DNA of 64,000 nucleotides from the IMG/VR virus record IMGVR_UViG_3300032290_001644, positions 1 to 64,000 of that record; one strand, given 5' to 3'. The stretch is from a virus (taxonomy: Duplodnaviria; Caudoviricetes). The translations under genes were made by a program, and so were the position numbers. Below the pieces are notes generated by a model that worked only from the letters and a program-made list of their open reading frames with translations, did no database searches and had not been told where the DNA came from. Below, piece by piece: positions 21,880 through 47,682 of this stretch; the stretch's first letter is position 1; each line of letters starts with the position of its first letter.

Positions 21880-22620
21880 TTGTGTTATCTAGTAGATCAA
21901 ATGAAAGGATCAAAAATGACAATAGATACTGGATATGTTTTTCTGATAGATCAGCTTGGTACTGATCTTGATATTGTGAACGCTGCAAGAGTCAGTTTCA
22001 ACAAAGAGTCTCATGCACTTACACCAAAAGATGAACGCTTGCTAAAATACTTGTGGCAAAATCAACATACTTCACCATTTAGGATGGTAACTTGCAAATT
22101 CAAGATCAAGGCTCCTATCTTTGTGCTTCGTCAATGGATGAAACATGTTGTCGGATGCACATGGAACGAGGTATCCGCTAGATATACCGAAGTTAAGCAT
22201 GAGTGTTTTACACCAGATACTTGGAGGCTACAGCATGAGACAAGCAAACAATCAAGTTATGGTCAAGTGGATAAACTGATCAGTGATGAGGCTGATAAGA
22301 GACTACTAGAGAGCTATGAAATCGCATATAAAAATTACCGATGGATGCTAGATCATGGTATTTGTAGAGAGCAGGCACGCATGCAACTCCCAGTAGGTAC
22401 ATATAGCGAATGCATCTGGAAAGCTGATCTTCAAGCCGTATTCAATTTCCTTTCGCTTCGTCTAGATCCTCATGCTCAAGAAGAGATTAGAGAGTATGCA
22501 AAAGAGGTTCATAGGCTTGTATCCATTGCATTCCCAGAGGCTACTCGTATGTGGGAATTAGCTTACAAAATAGATCAAGAATTGGCGGATCAAAAGAAGG
22601 CCTTGTGGGACAAAAACTAA
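21880..22620 (+). CDS. thyX: FAD-dependent thymidylate synthase
   Basis: IVNAARVSF, HTSPF, RQWMKHVVGCTWNEVSARY, REQARMQLP, HAQEEIR. Confidence 0.93.
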   Translation: MCYLVDQMKGSKMTIDTGYVFLIDQLGTDLDIVNAARVSFNKESHALTPKDERLLKYLWQNQHTSPFRMVTCKFKIKAPIFVLRQWMKHVVGCTWNEVSARYTEVKHECFTPDTWRLQHETSKQSSYGQVDKLISDEADKRLLESYEIAYKNYRWMLDHGICREQARMQLPVGTYSECIWKADLQAVFNFLSLRLDPHAQEEIREYAKEVHRLVSIAFPEATRMWELAYKIDQELADQKKALWDKN

Positions 22621-22913
22621 ACAATTCGTCTATAGTAGTATCTCATCCTAATCATATAATAATGGTACTGACCTTTACTCCCTGCACCATCCCAAGCTTG
22701 TACGATATGCCAAGGCACGCCAAAGTACTCATACACATGACCGCTATTGAATAAGACTGTTAGCATTTGAGTCATGGGAACATAGAAAAAAGATCTGATA
22801 TTTGATGAGTCAAAATTTGAGAATGTGTATTGCTGGGGGGTAAAAAAATTCAAACTGGTGATTGGTGTACCAACAATTTTTCTTCCCGCCATAGGTGATG
22901 GAGCTTGCTGCAT
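22617..22913 (-). CDS. KTSC-domain protein
   Basis: SSNIRSFFY...LTVLFNSGHVYEYFGVP...SKGQY pattern. Confidence 0.75.
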   Translation of the reverse strand: MQQAPSPMAGRKIVGTPITSLNFFTPQQYTFSNFDSSNIRSFFYVPMTQMLTVLFNSGHVYEYFGVPWHIVQAWDGAGSKGQYHYYMIRMRYYYRRIV

Positions 22914-31988: not shown

Positions 31989-32460
31989 TTTTCTTATTTC
32001 CTTTGGGTAGTAAACCGAGTGCTTTTGCTCTATATCTAGCGGAGTCGATTGTGATACCTAGCGTTTTACTTATCTCACGCCAGCTTAATCCTTGCTCATA
32101 TACTGCTTTAAATTGGTCCGCAACAAGGTCAAGATCAGTGTATCCCTTGTTTTTATGCTGGCCTAAATGTCTCAAAGCATAGTATCTGGCTTGCTCAGCA
32201 GTTACACCAAAAGCAGCACCTATTTGACGCCAAGGCTTCAATTCGATCATCATTTGCTCAAGCTTGATCAGATCCAGCTCCTTTACAGCGTTCTTGCGTA
32301 CCACTGAAGGCTTTTTGGGGGTAGTTATTTTTACTTGCTCTTTTGGTGGTACGATAGGAAGATCAATCTTCACTTGCTCTTTTGGTGGTACGATAGGAAG
32401 ATCAATCATTTGTCCATCTGTTGGCCTATAAATAAACGCTTTTGTTATTGTCATGATCAT
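31981..32460 (-). CDS. Two-HTH protein containing a 39-bp tandem duplication
   Basis: PWRQIGAAFGVT and SWREISKTLGIT; IDLPIVPPKEQVK occurs twice. Confidence 0.7.
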   Translation of the reverse strand: MIMTITKAFIYRPTDGQMIDLPIVPPKEQVKIDLPIVPPKEQVKITTPKKPSVVRKNAVKELDLIKLEQMMIELKPWRQIGAAFGVTAEQARYYALRHLGQHKNKGYTDLDLVADQFKAVYEQGLSWREISKTLGITIDSARYRAKALGLLPKGNKKND

Positions 32461-33053
32461 GCCTCACAATTTACTAATTTGACATTTCTTTTAGGTATAC
32501 CAGCATTGCGTATAATCGCATACAAGGTGCCAAGAGATACGCCACCTTGTGCAAGGATATCTTCAATCGGTAGGCCTTTTTTATATGCATCTAGAATCCA
32601 TTCACTTTTATCAAGTACCTGCTTTGTGATACCTTTTGGCCTACCGCCAACTCTTCCCCTTGCTCTTGCAGCCTTGAGGCCGAGCATGGTTCTTTCTCTG
32701 ATCATACCTACTTCCATCTCTGCCAGTGCACCGAAGATGTGAAAGATGAAGACTCCCATGTGCGTGCTTGTATCTATTCCATCGCTTGTCTTGAAATGAC
32801 AATCCTTGGCTTTGATTTGATCTACTAGCGAAATTAAATCTTTCATAGATCTACCTAATCGATCGAGCTTAGAGCATACCAAAGTATCACCCTTCTTTAG
32901 CTTGTTGAATGCTTTCTTTAGCTCTGGTCTTTCTTTTGATCTACCAGTAAATTTTTCTTGATAAATTGTGGTGCATCCAACCGATTTTAGATAGTCTATT
33001 TGCATATCTAGCGATTGATCTTCGGTCGATACTCTTGCATATCCAATTAACAT
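32457..33053 (-). CDS. Small serine recombinase (resolvase/invertase, Hin/Pin family)
   Basis: IGYARVSTEDQ, RPEL, KLDRLGRS, IRERTMLGL, RGRVGGRP and a C-terminal HTH. Confidence 0.95.
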   Translation of the reverse strand: MLIGYARVSTEDQSLDMQIDYLKSVGCTTIYQEKFTGRSKERPELKKAFNKLKKGDTLVCSKLDRLGRSMKDLISLVDQIKAKDCHFKTSDGIDTSTHMGVFIFHIFGALAEMEVGMIRERTMLGLKAARARGRVGGRPKGITKQVLDKSEWILDAYKKGLPIEDILAQGGVSLGTLYAIIRNAGIPKRNVKLVNCEA

Positions 33054-39202: not shown

Positions 39203-39736
39203 ATGACTCGAAAAAGAGGATTTATGAGAACGCCACCAACGGCAAGGAGCAATTCAGGTCTTCGTGCACAAAAACAAGGTAAAAGTGCTGAGGAGCAAAT
39301 TTTAGAGATAAGTGCTTTTTATCTCCAACATGGGATTGCAGAAGTGAATAAAAGACATGAGCCATATAAAAGGGTAGGATCAGGTAAAAACTGCTTTCAT
39401 GCTGTGTATAGCGACAAGGCTGGATGTGATTTTGAGATTTGGCTACCTAGTGGTAAAGGTGGGTACATAGAATGTAAATCAAGGGAAGGCATGAGGATCC
39501 AAAAGAGTGCGATTGATCCATACCAACAAGAGCAACTTGATCGACGGCTTGAGTGGGGACAAATAGCGGTGGTACTTATCAGACTTGACGGCGTTTGGTT
39601 TGCATGCTCATGGAAGAAATTTAGGGATTTTGAAAAGAAGTCTTTTACGGTAGCAGATCTTCTTCAAGTAGGTAAGCCAGTACCTATGCTTGCCAATTTA
39701 CTTCCAGATTTCATTAAAGTACTAGATCAAATTTGA
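39203..39736 (+). CDS. recU: RecU-like Holliday junction resolvase
   Basis: GKSAEEQI, EVNKRHEP, CDF...GYIECKS pattern. Confidence 0.75.
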   Translation: MTRKRGFMRTPPTARSNSGLRAQKQGKSAEEQILEISAFYLQHGIAEVNKRHEPYKRVGSGKNCFHAVYSDKAGCDFEIWLPSGKGGYIECKSREGMRIQKSAIDPYQQEQLDRRLEWGQIAVVLIRLDGVWFACSWKKFRDFEKKSFTVADLLQVGKPVPMLANLLPDFIKVLDQI

Positions 39737-39788: not shown

Positions 39789-40883
39789 ATGAAAATCACT
39801 CTTGATATCACTAAACATATCTCAATTTTGAAATCGATTGTTTCACTTGCTAGTCAAATGACAGCTCCAGAGTATCTATCCTATATCTATGTAGAGTGTT
39901 CCAATAGAACACTCACTCTACAATCCACTAATCTAGAGGCAACAAAGTTTTGTACCATCACACTGGATCAAGAATACCCCGAATTTAAATCTTTGATCCA
40001 TCACCAAGCTTTGGCTCAAGTGCTGGCAATCTTTACCGGCAAGATTTCTATTGACTTTGTAAAGGGTATCATCTCTCAAGGATCAACCAAGATTCACTTT
40101 AAAACACTGGATCCTAATTCCTTCCCTGAAATCAAGGTGGGTACTAATAAAGCACCATCTGATACACCAGTTTGGGATGAGTCTGAAATTGCTGACCTAA
40201 AAAAATCGATTGATATCTGCTTACCTTGTGTAAGTACGGAAGTTTCCCGTATCCGTCTATGTACAATCAATCTCAAATCAAGCGGTGATAATCTGTTTAT
40301 GCAGGCAACCAACGGCCATGTTTTGGCTAAGATCCGACTGGTAAAGCCTCGCTATACTGATTTTGATTGCCTCATTCCTAGCTCATCCATCAAACACATA
40401 TCCAGCTTTCTAGCAACAACAGCCTTCCCCACGATCTTTTTAGATGCAGGCCATATCGTACTATCAGATATCACTCAAACCGTCGCCGTTCGTTTGATCC
40501 AAGAAGTCTTCCCCGATATCGATGCTATCATTCCTAAACCAAGTGAAGATGCAATTAATTTCACTATCACGGATGAGCTAAGACAAGCCGTAAGGCAGGT
40601 GCAAAAAGTGGCCTCTGACTCCGCTTGTCTTCTTCATATAGATCAAAATAATCGTTTCTTTGTTCATGGTAAAACCGCTACTGGTGAGCTTGTCTATGAG
40701 TGGAAGGATGATGAATATGATGAAGACAAAGAGCCTCACAAAGCCTTGTTCCAAACATCGTACCTATCCAACACGATCAATCATACAGATGTAGGCCAAC
40801 AGATGAGTGAGCATACCCCGCTCATGTGTAGATCAAATGATGACAAGGTCCTTCTTCTATCCATGGCACGGAGAACCTCTTAA
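39789..40883 (+). CDS. dnaN: DNA polymerase III beta-like sliding clamp
   Basis: 364 aa; LQSTNLE, DPNSFPEI, MQATNGHVLA, RLIQEVFPDIDAIIP, FQTSYL. Confidence 0.8.
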   Translation: MKITLDITKHISILKSIVSLASQMTAPEYLSYIYVECSNRTLTLQSTNLEATKFCTITLDQEYPEFKSLIHHQALAQVLAIFTGKISIDFVKGIISQGSTKIHFKTLDPNSFPEIKVGTNKAPSDTPVWDESEIADLKKSIDICLPCVSTEVSRIRLCTINLKSSGDNLFMQATNGHVLAKIRLVKPRYTDFDCLIPSSSIKHISSFLATTAFPTIFLDAGHIVLSDITQTVAVRLIQEVFPDIDAIIPKPSEDAINFTITDELRQAVRQVQKVASDSACLLHIDQNNRFFVHGKTATGELVYEWKDDEYDEDKEPHKALFQTSYLSNTINHTDVGQQMSEHTPLMCRSNDDKVLLLSMARRTS

Positions 40884-41732
40884 ATGGTCAAAGAAAAGCA
40901 TGTTTTAGGGATATCTGGGGGTAAAGATAGTGCTGGTCTTGCAGTCTATATGCGAACATATCATCCAGAAATTGATATCGAGTATTTTTTTACGGATACT
41001 GGCAAAGAGCTACCCGAGACCTATGATTTTCTAACTCGCTTGGAGGGGTATCTTCGTAAAAGAATCAATCGACTTGACTCTAAGAGGGATTTTGATTTTT
41101 GGCTAAGACAGCATGGGAATTATCTGCCAAGTGCCACAGATAGATGGTGTACTATCAAAATGAAACTCAAGCCTTTTGAAGACTGGGTACAAGCTTTCTT
41201 GGATGAAGGTTATACCGTATATTCATATGTGGCTATTCGTGCGGATGAAGAATTTAGAGAAGGGTATCAATCCAAAGACTCAAACCTAATTATTAAATTA
41301 CCGCTTAGGGAAAATGGGATTGATAAGCCTAGAGTCATGCAACTTTTGCATGACGCCGGCCTTGGTTTGCCAGAGTACTATGAGTGGCGAAGTCGAAGCG
41401 GTTGCACTTTTTGTTTCTTCCAACGCAAGATTGAATGGGTCGGATTACTAGAACGACATCCCGAAGCGTTTCAAGAGGCAATCGATTATGAAAAGAGTAG
41501 TATCAAAGATGGCTACTTCTTTACATGGTCAGAAAATGAAAGCTTGGAAGAGTTGGCAAAGCCTGAACGAGTAGCTCAAATCAAGGCTGAATATGAGAAA
41601 CGAAAACAACAATACCAAGAGAGACAAGCAAAGAGACGGAGAAGTAACTTGTTGCAAGGTGCTAATGCTTGCTCAATTGATACTGATGATGTTTATGGAT
41701 CCGCTAAAGTTTGTCTTGCTTGCCATAAATAA
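40884..41732 (+). CDS. PAPS-reductase-family (PP-loop, Fe-S) protein, SspD/BrxP-like
   Basis: HVLGISGGKDS, FTDTGKELPE, RWCT, RSRSGCTFCFFQ, C-terminal CLACHK. Confidence 0.8.
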   Translation: MVKEKHVLGISGGKDSAGLAVYMRTYHPEIDIEYFFTDTGKELPETYDFLTRLEGYLRKRINRLDSKRDFDFWLRQHGNYLPSATDRWCTIKMKLKPFEDWVQAFLDEGYTVYSYVAIRADEEFREGYQSKDSNLIIKLPLRENGIDKPRVMQLLHDAGLGLPEYYEWRSRSGCTFCFFQRKIEWVGLLERHPEAFQEAIDYEKSSIKDGYFFTWSENESLEELAKPERVAQIKAEYEKRKQQYQERQAKRRRSNLLQGANACSIDTDDVYGSAKVCLACHK

Positions 41733-41812
41733 TTCTGCTGTTAACCAGGTTAACTACACAAATCTGCTGTTACCGCTGGAAACTACACAATATAAATAAT
41801 TAGGACACCTAT

Positions 41813-42301
41813 ATGCACCAGATCATAGACACATATGCGTACAATCAGAGCATGATTTATAACCGACGGATTTTCCTTGCTAGTAGTGTACATGTACCAG
41901 CTCGGTACGATTGGCAATCAAGCGTAATCTCTTTTTTAAAAAATCATGTTTTTACGGATAGCTATTGCACGATCGTGCATCTCCAACATGGTACGATGGA
42001 TGATACGGAAAAAATAAAATTGTACTATCAGTATCAAGCAAAGAGTACCTATACCGTCGTCTATTTTGATCAACATGCGGATGCATCCATCTATATGCTT
42101 GAGCTGGGTATGTACCTTCATTCAAAACAAGTCATTGTCATTTGTCATAAAGATTTTATTGCTAGGCTTACACTAGAGCAAATGTGTGTATGGTGGGGTA
42201 TCCATCTGATGATCCATGATCCAGATACATGCACCTTGGATACGGAGCTACTACAAAACCAACATTTCTTCAAGGATACCTCTAAATGGAAAGTGATTTA
42301 A
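41813..42301 (+). CDS. Nucleoside 2-deoxyribosyltransferase-like protein
   Basis: IFLASS...DWQ...SIYMLELG...VIVIC pattern. Confidence 0.6.
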   Translation: MHQIIDTYAYNQSMIYNRRIFLASSVHVPARYDWQSSVISFLKNHVFTDSYCTIVHLQHGTMDDTEKIKLYYQYQAKSTYTVVYFDQHADASIYMLELGMYLHSKQVIVICHKDFIARLTLEQMCVWWGIHLMIHDPDTCTLDTELLQNQHFFKDTSKWKVI

Positions 42302-42515: not shown

Positions 42516-45335
42516 ATGCAATTTTCCGATCATGCTCTATCACTTTTGAGGAGCTACTACCTATTACCATACGAAAAAGAAATTGATGAGGCCTTTGAGC
42601 GAGCAAGCAAGGCTTATTGTGCTGGTGATTATGATCTAGCTAGTCGTATCTACAACTATGTAAAAAAGGGGTGGTTTATGTTCTCATCCCCTATTTTATC
42701 CAATTCCAGGATCAAGGATGATGAGAAGAAAAAGGCTGGCTTACCAATCTCTTGCTACCTGACCTATGTCAATGATGATCTTGATGGTCTCATATCCCAT
42801 ACAACTGAAAATCGTTGGCTTGGAGTACTAGGTGGCGGTGTAGGTGGTTACTGGGGACATGTGAGAGCGGTATCTCAAAAAGCACCTGGTCCTATTCCCT
42901 TTATCAAGACCATTGATAGTGATGTAGAGGCTTACCGCCAAGGGAAGACACGACGAGCAAGCTATGCAGCATACCTTGATATTAGTCATCCAGATATCAT
43001 TGAATTTCTCAATCTACGATTACCCACTGGGGGGGATACCAATCGCAAGGCCTTTAATTTGCACAATGCAATTTGCCTAAGTGATGAATTTATGCAAGCG
43101 GTGGTGGATAATAAAGCATGGGATTTGATTGATCCACACACACACGAGACAAGAGAGACGGTACAAGCAAGAGAGCTTTGGCAACGAATTTTAGAAGTAC
43201 GATTTAGAACGGGTGAGCCTTATCTCATGTTCAAGGATACCGCTAATAGAGCCTTACCCCAAAGCCTAAAGGATAAAGGCCTAAAAATTCATAGCTCAAA
43301 TCTTTGTCTTGCTGGTAGTGAACGAGTAATCACAAATCGAGGATATTTAACCGCCAAAGAGTTATATGAGCAAGGGGGGGAGCTTGAGATTTTTGATGGT
43401 GTACACAAGCAAAAAGCCACTGAGATGAGATTGGTTGAGAAGGATGTACCCACATATAAAATCACTCTTAAGAACGGTTTATCACATACCATAACAAGTT
43501 ATCACCGAGTACGAACGGATAATGGATTGACCGCTTGTGAAGATTTAAAGGTTGGGGATAGAGTACATATCCAGAGCAATAAAGGTCTTTTTGGTACAAC
43601 CAGCATGGAGGATGAGGCCTTCCTACTAGGTTTATATCAAGCAGATGGTACCCAATACAAAGATACGATCATGCTGGATCTATGGGAAGATGATTTTGAT
43701 CTGATCGAGGAAATTGAAGAACGCTTTGCAAGAGTACATCACAAGTATGGATGCGATACATATGAGATAAAAAATTCTCATGGTGTCATTACAAGAGGTA
43801 GAGAGCCTGCAAAATTCAATGATTGTATTGTAAATCAAAGTACTGTTGCCAAAAAGCGATTAGCCTCTAAAACACTAAAGAAGTCTCTTGATTTCACAAA
43901 AGGACAAATTCCTTATTGGATTTGGGAATCAGATGAAGCTACCCAGTGGCAATATGTCAGAGGTTTATTCTATGCTGATGGTTGTGTATCTTTAGCCTCC
44001 TCTAAAGGTGAGCCAATTTATCTTAGTATCGCTAATGTAAATAAAGATTTTCTAAATGAATTACATTTACTTTTAAGAAATTTAGGTTTGCCTTTTGCTC
44101 TTCACCTACAAAGAGAAGCAGGTTTCTCAAGCCTACCAGATGGTAAAGGCGGATACAAAGATTACCCAACACAAACATGTTATCGCTTAGTATGTGGATC
44201 TAAAAACGCTTGTTTACGCTTAGAAGAAAAAACTGGCTTTCTTACTAGACGAGGCGTAGATCTTGAAAAAAGACCTTGGCGTGATAATACTCGTAAAGTG
44301 TCTGAAGTGGTATCCGTGGAGTATATTTGCCACCAAGATGTATACTGCCTAACCGTAGATTCTGAAAGTCATTTGTTTGTAGCGAATGGTGTTATTACAC
44401 ATAACTGTTCCGAAATTTTCTTGCCAACGGCTAAAGATAGATCTGCCGTATGTTGCCTCTCTAGTCTCAATCTTGAATATTTTGATGAGTGGAAAAATAC
44501 CCCTATTGTTGAGGATTGCATTACTTTCCTAGACAATGTACTTCAATATTTTATTGATCATGCTCCCCCCCAACTGGCGAATGCAATCCATGGAGCAAGA
44601 CAAGAACGATCATTAGGTCTTGGTGCTATGGGATTTCATTCATACCTACAACGCAAGAAGGTTGCCTTTGAGTCTATTGTGGCAAAAAGCTTTAATAAAA
44701 AAATCTTTAAACTGATCAATGAACGAGCAGTTTTACAATCTCAAAAATTAGCTACCGAGCGTGGTGAATATCCTGATGGCTTAGGCACTGGTAGACGCAA
44801 TGCTCATCTCTTAGCGATTGCTCCCAACTCAAACTCTTCAATCATTTTGGATACTTCCCCCAGCATTGAGCCTTGGGTTGCCAATGCCTTCACACATAGG
44901 ACCAGAGCGGGTACTTTCCTTACTAAGAATAGGTATCTTGATGATTTGTTAAGGAGCAAAGGCTTGAGTGAGTCTGAATATGAAGAGGTTTGGCAATCAA
45001 TCATCATCCATGAAGGATCAGTGCAACATCTTGATTTACTGACAGAGCATGAGCGAAAAATCTTTAAGACGGCGTATGAAATCGATCAACGCTGGGTAAT
45101 CTTACATGCAGGGGAACGCCAACCGTTTATTTGCCAAGGTCAATCAACAAATCTCTTCTTCCCTTCAGGTAGTGATAAATCCTATGTCAATGCTTGCCAC
45201 CTTCAAGCTTGGAAGGATGGCTTAAAGTCAGTGTACTATCTTCGTACTACTGCTGGTACACAAGCGGAAAAAATCTCTAAACCAATCGTCAAGGAAGTCG
45301 TAAAACTTGATGAATGTATCGCATGTCAAGGATGA
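42516..45335 (+). CDS. nrdA: Class Ia ribonucleotide reductase alpha subunit, no ATP cone, with intein
   Basis: SSPILSN, PISC, GGVG, SNL-C-SEI, GLGAMG, AIAPNSNSS, QGQSTN, KSVYYLR, C-terminal CIAC. Confidence 0.95.
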   Translation: MQFSDHALSLLRSYYLLPYEKEIDEAFERASKAYCAGDYDLASRIYNYVKKGWFMFSSPILSNSRIKDDEKKKAGLPISCYLTYVNDDLDGLISHTTENRWLGVLGGGVGGYWGHVRAVSQKAPGPIPFIKTIDSDVEAYRQGKTRRASYAAYLDISHPDIIEFLNLRLPTGGDTNRKAFNLHNAICLSDEFMQAVVDNKAWDLIDPHTHETRETVQARELWQRILEVRFRTGEPYLMFKDTANRALPQSLKDKGLKIHSSNLCLAGSERVITNRGYLTAKELYEQGGELEIFDGVHKQKATEMRLVEKDVPTYKITLKNGLSHTITSYHRVRTDNGLTACEDLKVGDRVHIQSNKGLFGTTSMEDEAFLLGLYQADGTQYKDTIMLDLWEDDFDLIEEIEERFARVHHKYGCDTYEIKNSHGVITRGREPAKFNDCIVNQSTVAKKRLASKTLKKSLDFTKGQIPYWIWESDEATQWQYVRGLFYADGCVSLASSKGEPIYLSIANVNKDFLNELHLLLRNLGLPFALHLQREAGFSSLPDGKGGYKDYPTQTCYRLVCGSKNACLRLEEKTGFLTRRGVDLEKRPWRDNTRKVSEVVSVEYICHQDVYCLTVDSESHLFVANGVITHNCSEIFLPTAKDRSAVCCLSSLNLEYFDEWKNTPIVEDCITFLDNVLQYFIDHAPPQLANAIHGARQERSLGLGAMGFHSYLQRKKVAFESIVAKSFNKKIFKLINERAVLQSQKLATERGEYPDGLGTGRRNAHLLAIAPNSNSSIILDTSPSIEPWVANAFTHRTRAGTFLTKNRYLDDLLRSKGLSESEYEEVWQSIIIHEGSVQHLDLLTEHERKIFKTAYEIDQRWVILHAGERQPFICQGQSTNLFFPSGSDKSYVNACHLQAWKDGLKSVYYLRTTAGTQAEKISKPIVKEVVKLDECIACQG
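43305..44405 (+). mobile_element. Intein (367 aa) with LAGLIDADG homing endonuclease
   Basis: Starts CLAGSERV, ends VITHN, followed by Cys; blocks FLLGLYQADG and YVRGLFYADG. Confidence 0.95.
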
Positions 45336-47112: not shown

Positions 47113-47682
47113 ATGTCCTCAGTACACAAGTATTTGGTTGAGCAAACTGCCACCACGAACATGGTAAAAAAATTGCAATTCACTGAAATTTGCACTTCCC
47201 TTCACCAAACACCTCAAATTTTACGGCCACTCTATGATGAAAATCTAGAGGGGGTACTTTTACAACCTGATGGATCCGTGAAAGCTTTATATGAATGGTC
47301 TTCCCCAATCAAGGGACCAGAGCAAGCAAGGGATAATATCATTCACGCACTTCCCGATGTTGCTATATATGCACCGCTTATTCCATCACTAGATAGTATC
47401 ACTAGAGAGATTTGGTACTGGCAAACTCAATTCGATGGTCGAGCCTCTATCTCTGGGGTACTCAATCACTTAAAGAACGAAATCAAGGAATTTGAAGAGA
47501 CTGAACAAGGGAGCGAGGCACAAGAGAAAGAGTTTGCTGATCTTTATATTTTGCTCATGCATCTTGCAGCTCTTTCAAATATCGATATTAAATCAGCAAT
47601 CACTGCAAAACTTGATCAAGTCAAGAAGAGAGACTACTCTGCACAGCCAGATGAACAAGGTTGTATCACTCATAAAAAATAA
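47113..47682 (+). CDS. DUF550-like (MazG-fold) dNTP pyrophosphohydrolase with N-terminal extension
   Basis: GVLNHLKNEIKE...EFADLYIL...AITAKLDQVKKRDY...CITH. Confidence 0.7.
   Translation: MSSVHKYLVEQTATTNMVKKLQFTEICTSLHQTPQILRPLYDENLEGVLLQPDGSVKALYEWSSPIKGPEQARDNIIHALPDVAIYAPLIPSLDSITREIWYWQTQFDGRASISGVLNHLKNEIKEFEETEQGSEAQEKEFADLYILLMHLAALSNIDIKSAITAKLDQVKKRDYSAQPDEQGCITHKK

Follow-up and report, generated by a model that had tools for sequence, protein, structure and literature searches.

A stand-alone orthologue of SspD, the sulfur-transfer subunit of the bacterial SspABCD DNA phosphorothioation systems, is carried by an aquatic phage of the Caudoviricetes, IMG/VR virus record IMGVR_UViG_3300032290_001644. 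It is encoded at positions 40884-41732 of the stretch of DNA analysed here, which comprises the first 64 kb (64,000 nucleotides) of the record and is referred to below as the window. The record itself is complete at 72,735 bp with 123-bp direct terminal repeats, and metagenomes of freshwater, riverine, marine and wastewater origin from 12 studies contain the phage. The gene product is tentatively proposed, at a probability of about 0.4, to be a counter-defence enzyme that joins the Ssp machinery of the host during phage replication and raises the phosphorothioate (PT) marking of the phage DNA.

The predicted protein of 282 amino acids has much the same length as its bacterial counterparts, which contain about 280 residues in the SspABCD-SspE and SspBCD-SspFGH systems of Vibrio cyclitrophicus FF75, V. 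anguillarum FF-93 and E. coli 3234/A. All the motifs that a first-pass annotation of the window had listed are present, with the PP-loop SGGKDS at residues 11-16, RWCT at 87-90, GCTFC at 173-177 and CLACH at 277-281. An alignment of 48 family sequences shows no variation at the five cysteines within the latter three motifs (C89, C174, C177, C277 and C280), and the phage protein shares both these and the PP-loop with bacterial SspD. The PADLOC SspD model (PDLC02782) is matched from profile position 1 to 277 of 277 at 419.3 bits, against 417 bits for the operon-borne protein of V. anguillarum; two further operon-borne controls, P0008 and L012, give 445 and 368 bits. The same model awards 54 bits to a NinC-type phage PAPS reductase and 75 bits to one from a Vibrio phage, proteins with which the present one is 26% and 24% identical, respectively. 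There is also a match to PHROG 424 (129 bits, E 4e-37), which is a broad remote-homology cluster. Beyond its own lineage, whose members are 98%, 93% and 80% identical, the protein shares 64-71% identity with homologues from Alphaproteobacteria, Moraxellaceae and others (among the top 120 in a set of at least 8000 database matches). Identity to the Vibrionaceae-type SspDs is 50-54%, and 50-56% across that whole clade.

DndC and BrxP belong to the same superfamily and are presumed to share its chemistry, that of an ATP pyrophosphatase acting as PT sulfur donor. Membership of the DndC family is rejected by profile scores far below the cut-off (TIGR03183 15 bits against 290.4, with the PADLOC DndC models at 14-18 bits). 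The close likeness to BrxP of type 4 BREX, which the first-pass annotation had suggested, shrinks to a partial match of 37.5 bits that spans only positions 136-336 of the 779 in the profile, namely the PP-loop core. BrxP is moreover a protein of about 780 residues whose fused DUF4007 and C-terminal modules are missing from the phage protein, and no BREX genes lie nearby, so that this assignment is rejected as well. The same applies to a sulfate-assimilation enzyme of the CysH type, as the equivalog models remain under their cut-offs (CysH NF002537 20.6 bits against 154, APS-reductase TIGR02055 12.7 bits against 235); clustering with CysH, the outcome that had been put forward as telling against the original assignment, was therefore not observed. 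Judged from sequence, the gene is thus a true SspD orthologue and not a DndC, BrxP or CysH.

An AlphaFold2 model (mean predicted local distance difference test score 82) has a PP-loop nucleotide alpha-hydrolase fold, of the generic type that is common to MnmA, TtuA, NcsA, LarE and CysH. No solved structure of a close relative was retrieved with phmmer, and Foldseek returned only generic PP-loop enzymes with template modelling scores of about 0.45. The sole solved chain matched by the SspD profile is PDB 21fy chain C, named 'PptA' (E 3e-7). This chain is 270 amino acids long and has SCGAPS in place of the PP-loop SGGxDS; no paper describing it was found.

The family to which the phage protein belongs is, in bacteria, an operon family. 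A survey was made of 80 named bacterial genomes with a homologue at 50-71% identity, in which tblastn was used to search for Ssp genes. SspC lies directly upstream of SspD in all 80 loci and SspB is found upstream in 79, the exception being a short contig, which agrees with the earlier suggestion that this is the SspD family associated with DUF4007. Two loci from the group at 64-71% identity were inspected, and in both a divergent cysteine desulfurase is followed by a DUF4007 protein (SspB), an ATPase of about 1090 amino acids (SspC) and then SspD. The downstream genes comprise a DndB/SspE-like gene in one of these loci and a helicase/SMC set in the other. When identity to a reference operon is compared across the subunits, SspD (56-80%) is by far the best conserved, ahead of SspA (35-64%), SspB (30-55%) and SspC (29-44%). 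Hence SspD is the subunit likeliest to fit into the complexes of many hosts.

Unlike its bacterial relatives, the phage copy stands alone in a lytic-type genome, 3' of a sliding clamp gene and without SspA, SspB, SspC or an effector. The absence of a cysteine desulfurase, SspB and SspC, which had been claimed for the window, extends to the whole phage. A six-frame Pfam search of all 72,735 bp gave no match to Aminotran_5, DUF4007 or DUF499, and tblastn with real operon proteins as queries found no SspA, SspB, SspC or SspE in the genome; as a control of the DUF4007 search, none of 14 control genomes matched. Since no sspA, sspB or sspC is present, the protein is an SspD orthologue that stands outside any Ssp system in cis.

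A maximum-likelihood tree was calculated from 89 SspDs, five of which come from the phage lineage. The five form a single clade, with full support (100) in the Shimodaira-Hasegawa-like approximate likelihood ratio test, and this clade is nested inside a 41-row bacterial clade of operon-borne SspDs (support 92). The nesting points to a single capture from a bacterial Ssp operon. Stand-alone phage genes with a PP-loop and a PAPS-reductase fold are known in the form of lambda NinC (PHROG 424) and the Vibrio-phage PAPS reductase, and belong to the same superfamily. Unlike that family, however, the phage SspD lies within the operon-borne bacterial clade, and by comparison with the two members scored it appears to represent a separate lineage. 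The neighbours in the tree are taxonomically scattered and so give no pointer to the host. Across 77 distinct bacterial SspDs, 67 alignment columns show no variation and a further 44 are conserved to at least 90%; all five phage copies retain 66 of the former and 40 of the latter, with the PP-loop and the five cysteines among the columns kept. The phage protein also has a 4-residue insertion in its C-terminal helix. Pairwise ratios of non-synonymous to synonymous substitution rates (dN/dS) among the phage copies are 0.015-0.06, with synonymous sites near or at saturation. The intact catalytic residues and the strong purifying selection favour what is probably an active enzyme over an inert decoy.

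Lone SspD genes have been retained by phages on more than one occasion. The INPHARED phage collection contains no DNA relative of the present phage, and the best protein match therein is 40% identical and sits in an operon that, judged by the sizes of its open reading frames, is SspB/C-like. About 20 further viral contigs with an SspD homologue came to light in three pattern scans of IMG/VR. Where a true SspD is present, SspB and SspC lie upstream of it in all viral contigs but three, which means that complete operons are carried by prophage-like contigs; SspD stands alone in the present phage, a sister phage and an unrelated contig, L108. The SspD of L108 scores 342 bits, has an intact PP-loop and cysteine motifs and is located among terminase, portal and head genes. 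As it groups with a different bacterial-type SspD, it represents an independent capture, and no partner gene is shared between L108 and the present phage, SspD being the only gene in common. Having been captured twice independently, a lone SspD seems to be repeatedly useful to phages. Complete SspB-SspC-SspD operons, some with SspA, are found on the viral-classed contigs L099-L107 and L116-L123 and in the phage record MT835926 (L112), an indication that whole Ssp modules are often carried by prophages or phage-like elements.

The SspD of the bacterial systems is an ATP pyrophosphatase that binds SspA and is regarded as the final donor of sulfur (PMC7188994, PMC12707154). SspB nicks the DNA before sulfur insertion (PMC8092258, PMC12707154), SspC is an ATPase and IscS can substitute for SspA, and the modification as published uses sspBCD jointly (PMC8092258). 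On the effector side, SspFGH damages DNA without PT and SspE defence depends on PT in the host DNA, whilst the effector of one system recognises as self the PT that the SspBCD of another has written (PMC8092258). For a lone, fully conserved SspD to apply its chemistry to DNA, both the sulfur donor and the subunits that handle DNA must come from the host. With no SspB, SspC or desulfurase in the phage, the most likely role is therefore counter-defence in Ssp-carrying hosts.

In the proposed scheme the SspABCD operon of a bacterium would have supplied the gene, which this lineage of aquatic phages captured once. During replication the phage protein would join host SspA (or IscS), SspB and SspC, take activated sulfur from the cysteine desulfurase and serve as the final donor for single-strand DNA phosphorothioation. 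New phage DNA would in this way gain the PT 'self' mark of the host and may then evade effectors that depend on PT, of the type of SspFGH or SspE. The parts of the scheme that we infer are the role in counter-defence, the reliance on host partners and the mechanism of self-marking. Related cases are described in the literature. Evasion of Dnd is reportedly promoted by a PAPS reductase of phage origin (Piel 2022, as cited in PMC13551039 and PMC10945359), and according to a proposal published in 2026, phage genes of the DndC/SspD-like type are former host components that now serve to evade PT systems (PMC13551039). The same paper treats viral copies of defence subunits that antagonise their own system as a published theme, for which it cites cas genes (PMC13551039). 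Viral cas genes are comparable in that one conserved subunit of a multi-subunit host system has been kept by the phage, but in contrast to them the phage SspD is predicted to be a catalytic subunit, the sulfur donor, and has every appearance of full activity.

In the phage genome the gene is embedded among replication and nucleotide metabolism genes, and the region is made up as follows.

39203-39736, plus strand: RecU-like Holliday junction resolvase (PHROG 843, E 3e-18; Pfam RecU 24.1 bits, cut-off 25)
39789-40883, plus strand: divergent beta sliding clamp, 364 amino acids (Pfam DNA_pol3_beta_2 PF02767; PHROG 947)
40884-41732, plus strand: predicted stand-alone SspD orthologue, 282 amino acids, PP-loop ATP pyrophosphatase/sulfur-transfer subunit (PADLOC SspD)
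41735-41801, plus strand: 67-nt insertion in the gap between SspD and the next gene, with two 27-nt matches (41734-41760 and 41763-41789) whose starts are 29 nt apart
41813-42301, plus strand: nucleoside 2-deoxyribosyltransferase-like gene, 162 amino acids (PF15891 Nuc_deoxyri_tr2, 43.2 bits, cut-off 30)
42516-45335, plus strand: ribonucleotide reductase (RNR) large subunit with a LAGLIDADG intein, 939 amino acids (Ribonuc_red_lgC E 2e-105; Intein_splicing; LAGLIDADG_3)

The RecU-like gene, which is 81-97% identical among related phages, is the first of this plus-strand operon, which begins 3' of a divergent intergenic region at about 38.3-39.2 kb. The order RecU-clamp-SspD-deoxyribosyltransferase-like-RNR is completed by the genes for the large and then the small subunit of a class I RNR. 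The clamp is recognised by PF02767 at 31.7 bits (cut-off 27), by PHROG 947 at E 6e-31 and by TIGR00663 at 77 bits, the last of these lying below the equivalog cut-off. As had been pointed out before, SspD starts on the base after the clamp stop codon, with TAA ending at 40883 and ATG beginning at 40884 (junction CTCTTAAATGGTC), and a deoxyribosyltransferase-like gene is indeed the next gene downstream. An ELG motif in the latter resembles the catalytic-glutamate motif of that enzyme family. A scan of 38.0-46.5 kb detected no terminator-like sites; promoter-like sites were fewer in the same scan than in shuffled sequences, which is uninformative beyond suggesting a single operon. SspD is probably co-transcribed with the replication genes. 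A 1284-nt contig from a wastewater library matches 40266-41530 perfectly, across the clamp/SspD junction, and may be of RNA origin, the library being labelled complementary DNA.

The 67-nt insertion behind SspD, in the interval 41725-41801, is flanked by a 10-nt direct duplication (ATAAATAATT), and each of its 27-nt matches includes a GTTAAC-type palindrome. It is missing in the 98%-identical relatives L094 and L095 and the unit occurs nowhere else in the window; a very small mobile element and a site with a regulatory role are both conceivable. Elsewhere in the window there is a weak match at 47113-47682 to PF04447, a dATP/dGTP pyrophosphohydrolase family (20.6 bits, cut-off 23), and the minus-strand early region encodes a serine recombinase (32457-33053, Resolvase E 5e-42) and a KTSC-domain protein (22617-22913). 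The phage also encodes several tandem helix-turn-helix (HTH) proteins and two methylase genes, the latter recognised by methylase homology in a PHROG scan, and no tRNA genes were found in its genome.

Comparison with related phages separates the fate of SspD from that of its neighbours. In the sister phage (L010, IMG/VR, 72,061 bp) SspD is 92% identical and is the best-conserved protein of the module, its neighbours ranging from 33% for the clamp through 81% for RecU to 86-90% for RNR; further proteins matched in the fetched stretch of that phage are 27-66% identical. Two other related contigs, L113 and L114, are closer in backbone, with RecU at 92-97%, RNR at 89-95% and the clamp at 48-49%, but in these the clamp is directly followed by RNR, without SspD or the deoxyribosyltransferase-like gene. 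The clamp is hypervariable and falls into three allele groups at 96%, 48-49% and 33-36% identity (comparing L010, L003, L113 and L114) amid flanking RecU and RNR genes at 81-97% and 86-95%. SspD abuts the clamp as TAA-ATG in one allele group and follows it after a 2-nt spacer in another, an arrangement that makes translational coupling probable. The 80% SspD homologue sits between an uncharacterised protein and a P-loop NTPase.

The first-pass annotation had described SspD as coupled to the sliding clamp. The gene order and the probable translational coupling bear this out, whereas a functional partnership is unsupported: a clamp at 33% identity beside an SspD at 92% indicates that the two are not co-evolving, relatives possess the clamp without SspD, and SspDs occur elsewhere. 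Nor does a clamp-binding motif stand out among the phage-specific SspD residues. The deoxyribosyltransferase-like gene follows SspD only in the group at 98% identity and is missing from that position in the 93% group, and the copy in the sister phage (L010 215-706) is 27% identical and adjoins an HsdM-like methylase gene. As it is not conserved beside SspD, it is rejected as a partner, and it is itself a mobile accessory. The RNR intein varies too, being absent in the 93% SspD group (RNR of 572 amino acids) and present in the SspD-less L113 (940 amino acids). On these comparisons SspD is an accessory gene under strong selection that occupies a variable slot between clamp and RNR, and its patchy presence is of a defence type, in keeping with the counter-defence reading.

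The genome has further been purged, almost completely, of several restriction sites. ACGT (about 108 expected in the window), GATCNC (about 107 expected), GCGC, CGCG, CTGCAG and CTCGAG are absent from the whole genome. Others are strongly depleted relative to expectation, namely GCCC/GGGC (14 against about 238), GAATC (19 against 164), GCCGC (3 against 42), GAATTC (2 against 48) and GAGCTC (2 against 46), and GATC itself is not depleted. The Ssp motif CCA shows no depletion (observed/expected 1.06), although at 3 nt it is a motif that cannot be purged. The methylase genes and the site purging fit a phage under heavy restriction pressure.

Several considerations weigh against a counter-defence enzyme that marks the phage DNA. 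The presence of an Ssp system in the host of the phage is an assumption; such a host, moreover, already makes SspD, and it is a further assumption that this subunit is rate-limiting or labile. As SspE is activated by PT in host DNA (PMC8092258), PT on the phage DNA may not protect against every effector, and the reported precedent, as related in the papers that cite it, concerns the distant PAPS-reductase family and Dnd rather than Ssp. The stem of the phage clade is also long, at 0.37 substitutions per site, with root-to-tip distances about 1.5-3 times those of the bacterial neighbours, and could reflect adaptation to a changed role.

This faster evolution would also suit a phage SspD that is over-produced from the replication operon and titrates the SspA/IscS persulfide, SspC or SspB of the host into complexes that are unproductive, thereby blocking PT writing or PT-dependent effector activation. 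SspD directly binds SspA (PMC7188994), SspE defence needs PT-dependent stimulation (PMC8092258), viral antagonists derived from defence subunits are known for cas genes (PMC13551039), and the most conserved subunit would make the decoy with the broadest range. An inert decoy needs no catalytic centre, however, and yet the PP-loop, the five cysteines and 106 of 111 highly conserved columns have been kept at a dN/dS of about 0.03. The independently captured SspD of L108 likewise retains its PP-loop and cysteine motifs, and the retention of catalytic residues under purifying selection, in that copy too, weakens the idea of a decoy. Existing PT in the host DNA would also outlast the infection cycle, so that blocking new writing would bring little immediate gain. 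Poisoning of the host complex in this manner is accordingly rather unlikely, and of the two possibilities, self-marking of the phage DNA is favoured over jamming.

A further possibility is a phage SspD that works with host IscS alone and would phosphorothioate the phage DNA without SspB or SspC, relying instead on nicks at the fork, on clamps or on the tandem-HTH proteins, several of which the phage encodes. The placement of SspD in a replication operon that lacks terminator-like sites from 38.0 to 46.5 kb, its close and probably translational coupling to two of the clamp alleles, and the fact that SspB contributes nicking (PMC8092258, PMC12707154) and that forks are rich in nicks are all in keeping with this. 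Such an autonomous writer is nevertheless improbable, as sspBCD are used jointly in the published modification (PMC8092258) and the clamp link itself gives way, with a clamp at 33% against SspD at 92%, clamps without SspD, SspDs away from clamps and no clamp-binding motif among the phage-specific residues. The massive purging of restriction sites, too, suggests that the phage DNA is not generally protected. If real, such writing would be the first phage-encoded DNA backbone modification. Equally poor odds attach to an unrelated sulfur or adenylation chemistry, such as tRNA or nucleotide thiolation or CysH-like help in assimilation. The PP-loop fold is a generic one that is shared with MnmA, TtuA, NcsA, LarE and CysH, annotation as auxiliary metabolic genes is frequent for the PAPS reductases of phages, and the neighbouring RNR, deoxyribosyltransferase-like and dNTP pyrophosphohydrolase-like genes belong to nucleotide metabolism. 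Against this stand the full-length SspD orthology at the strength of operon-borne proteins, the CysH and APS-reductase models at 13-21 bits against cut-offs of 154-235, and the occurrence of the bacterial family members only inside SspBCD operons (80 of 80 loci).

Orphan PAPS-reductase-like genes are common in phages, and most are too distant from studied enzymes to guide experiments. With 50-71% identity to SspDs of the characterised type, the phage protein is in contrast directly testable. Should the counter-defence role hold true, SspD would add to the restriction-site purging in the same genome, itself an apparent anti-restriction strategy, and would illustrate how a phage counters a host modification system with the best-conserved of the system's own subunits.

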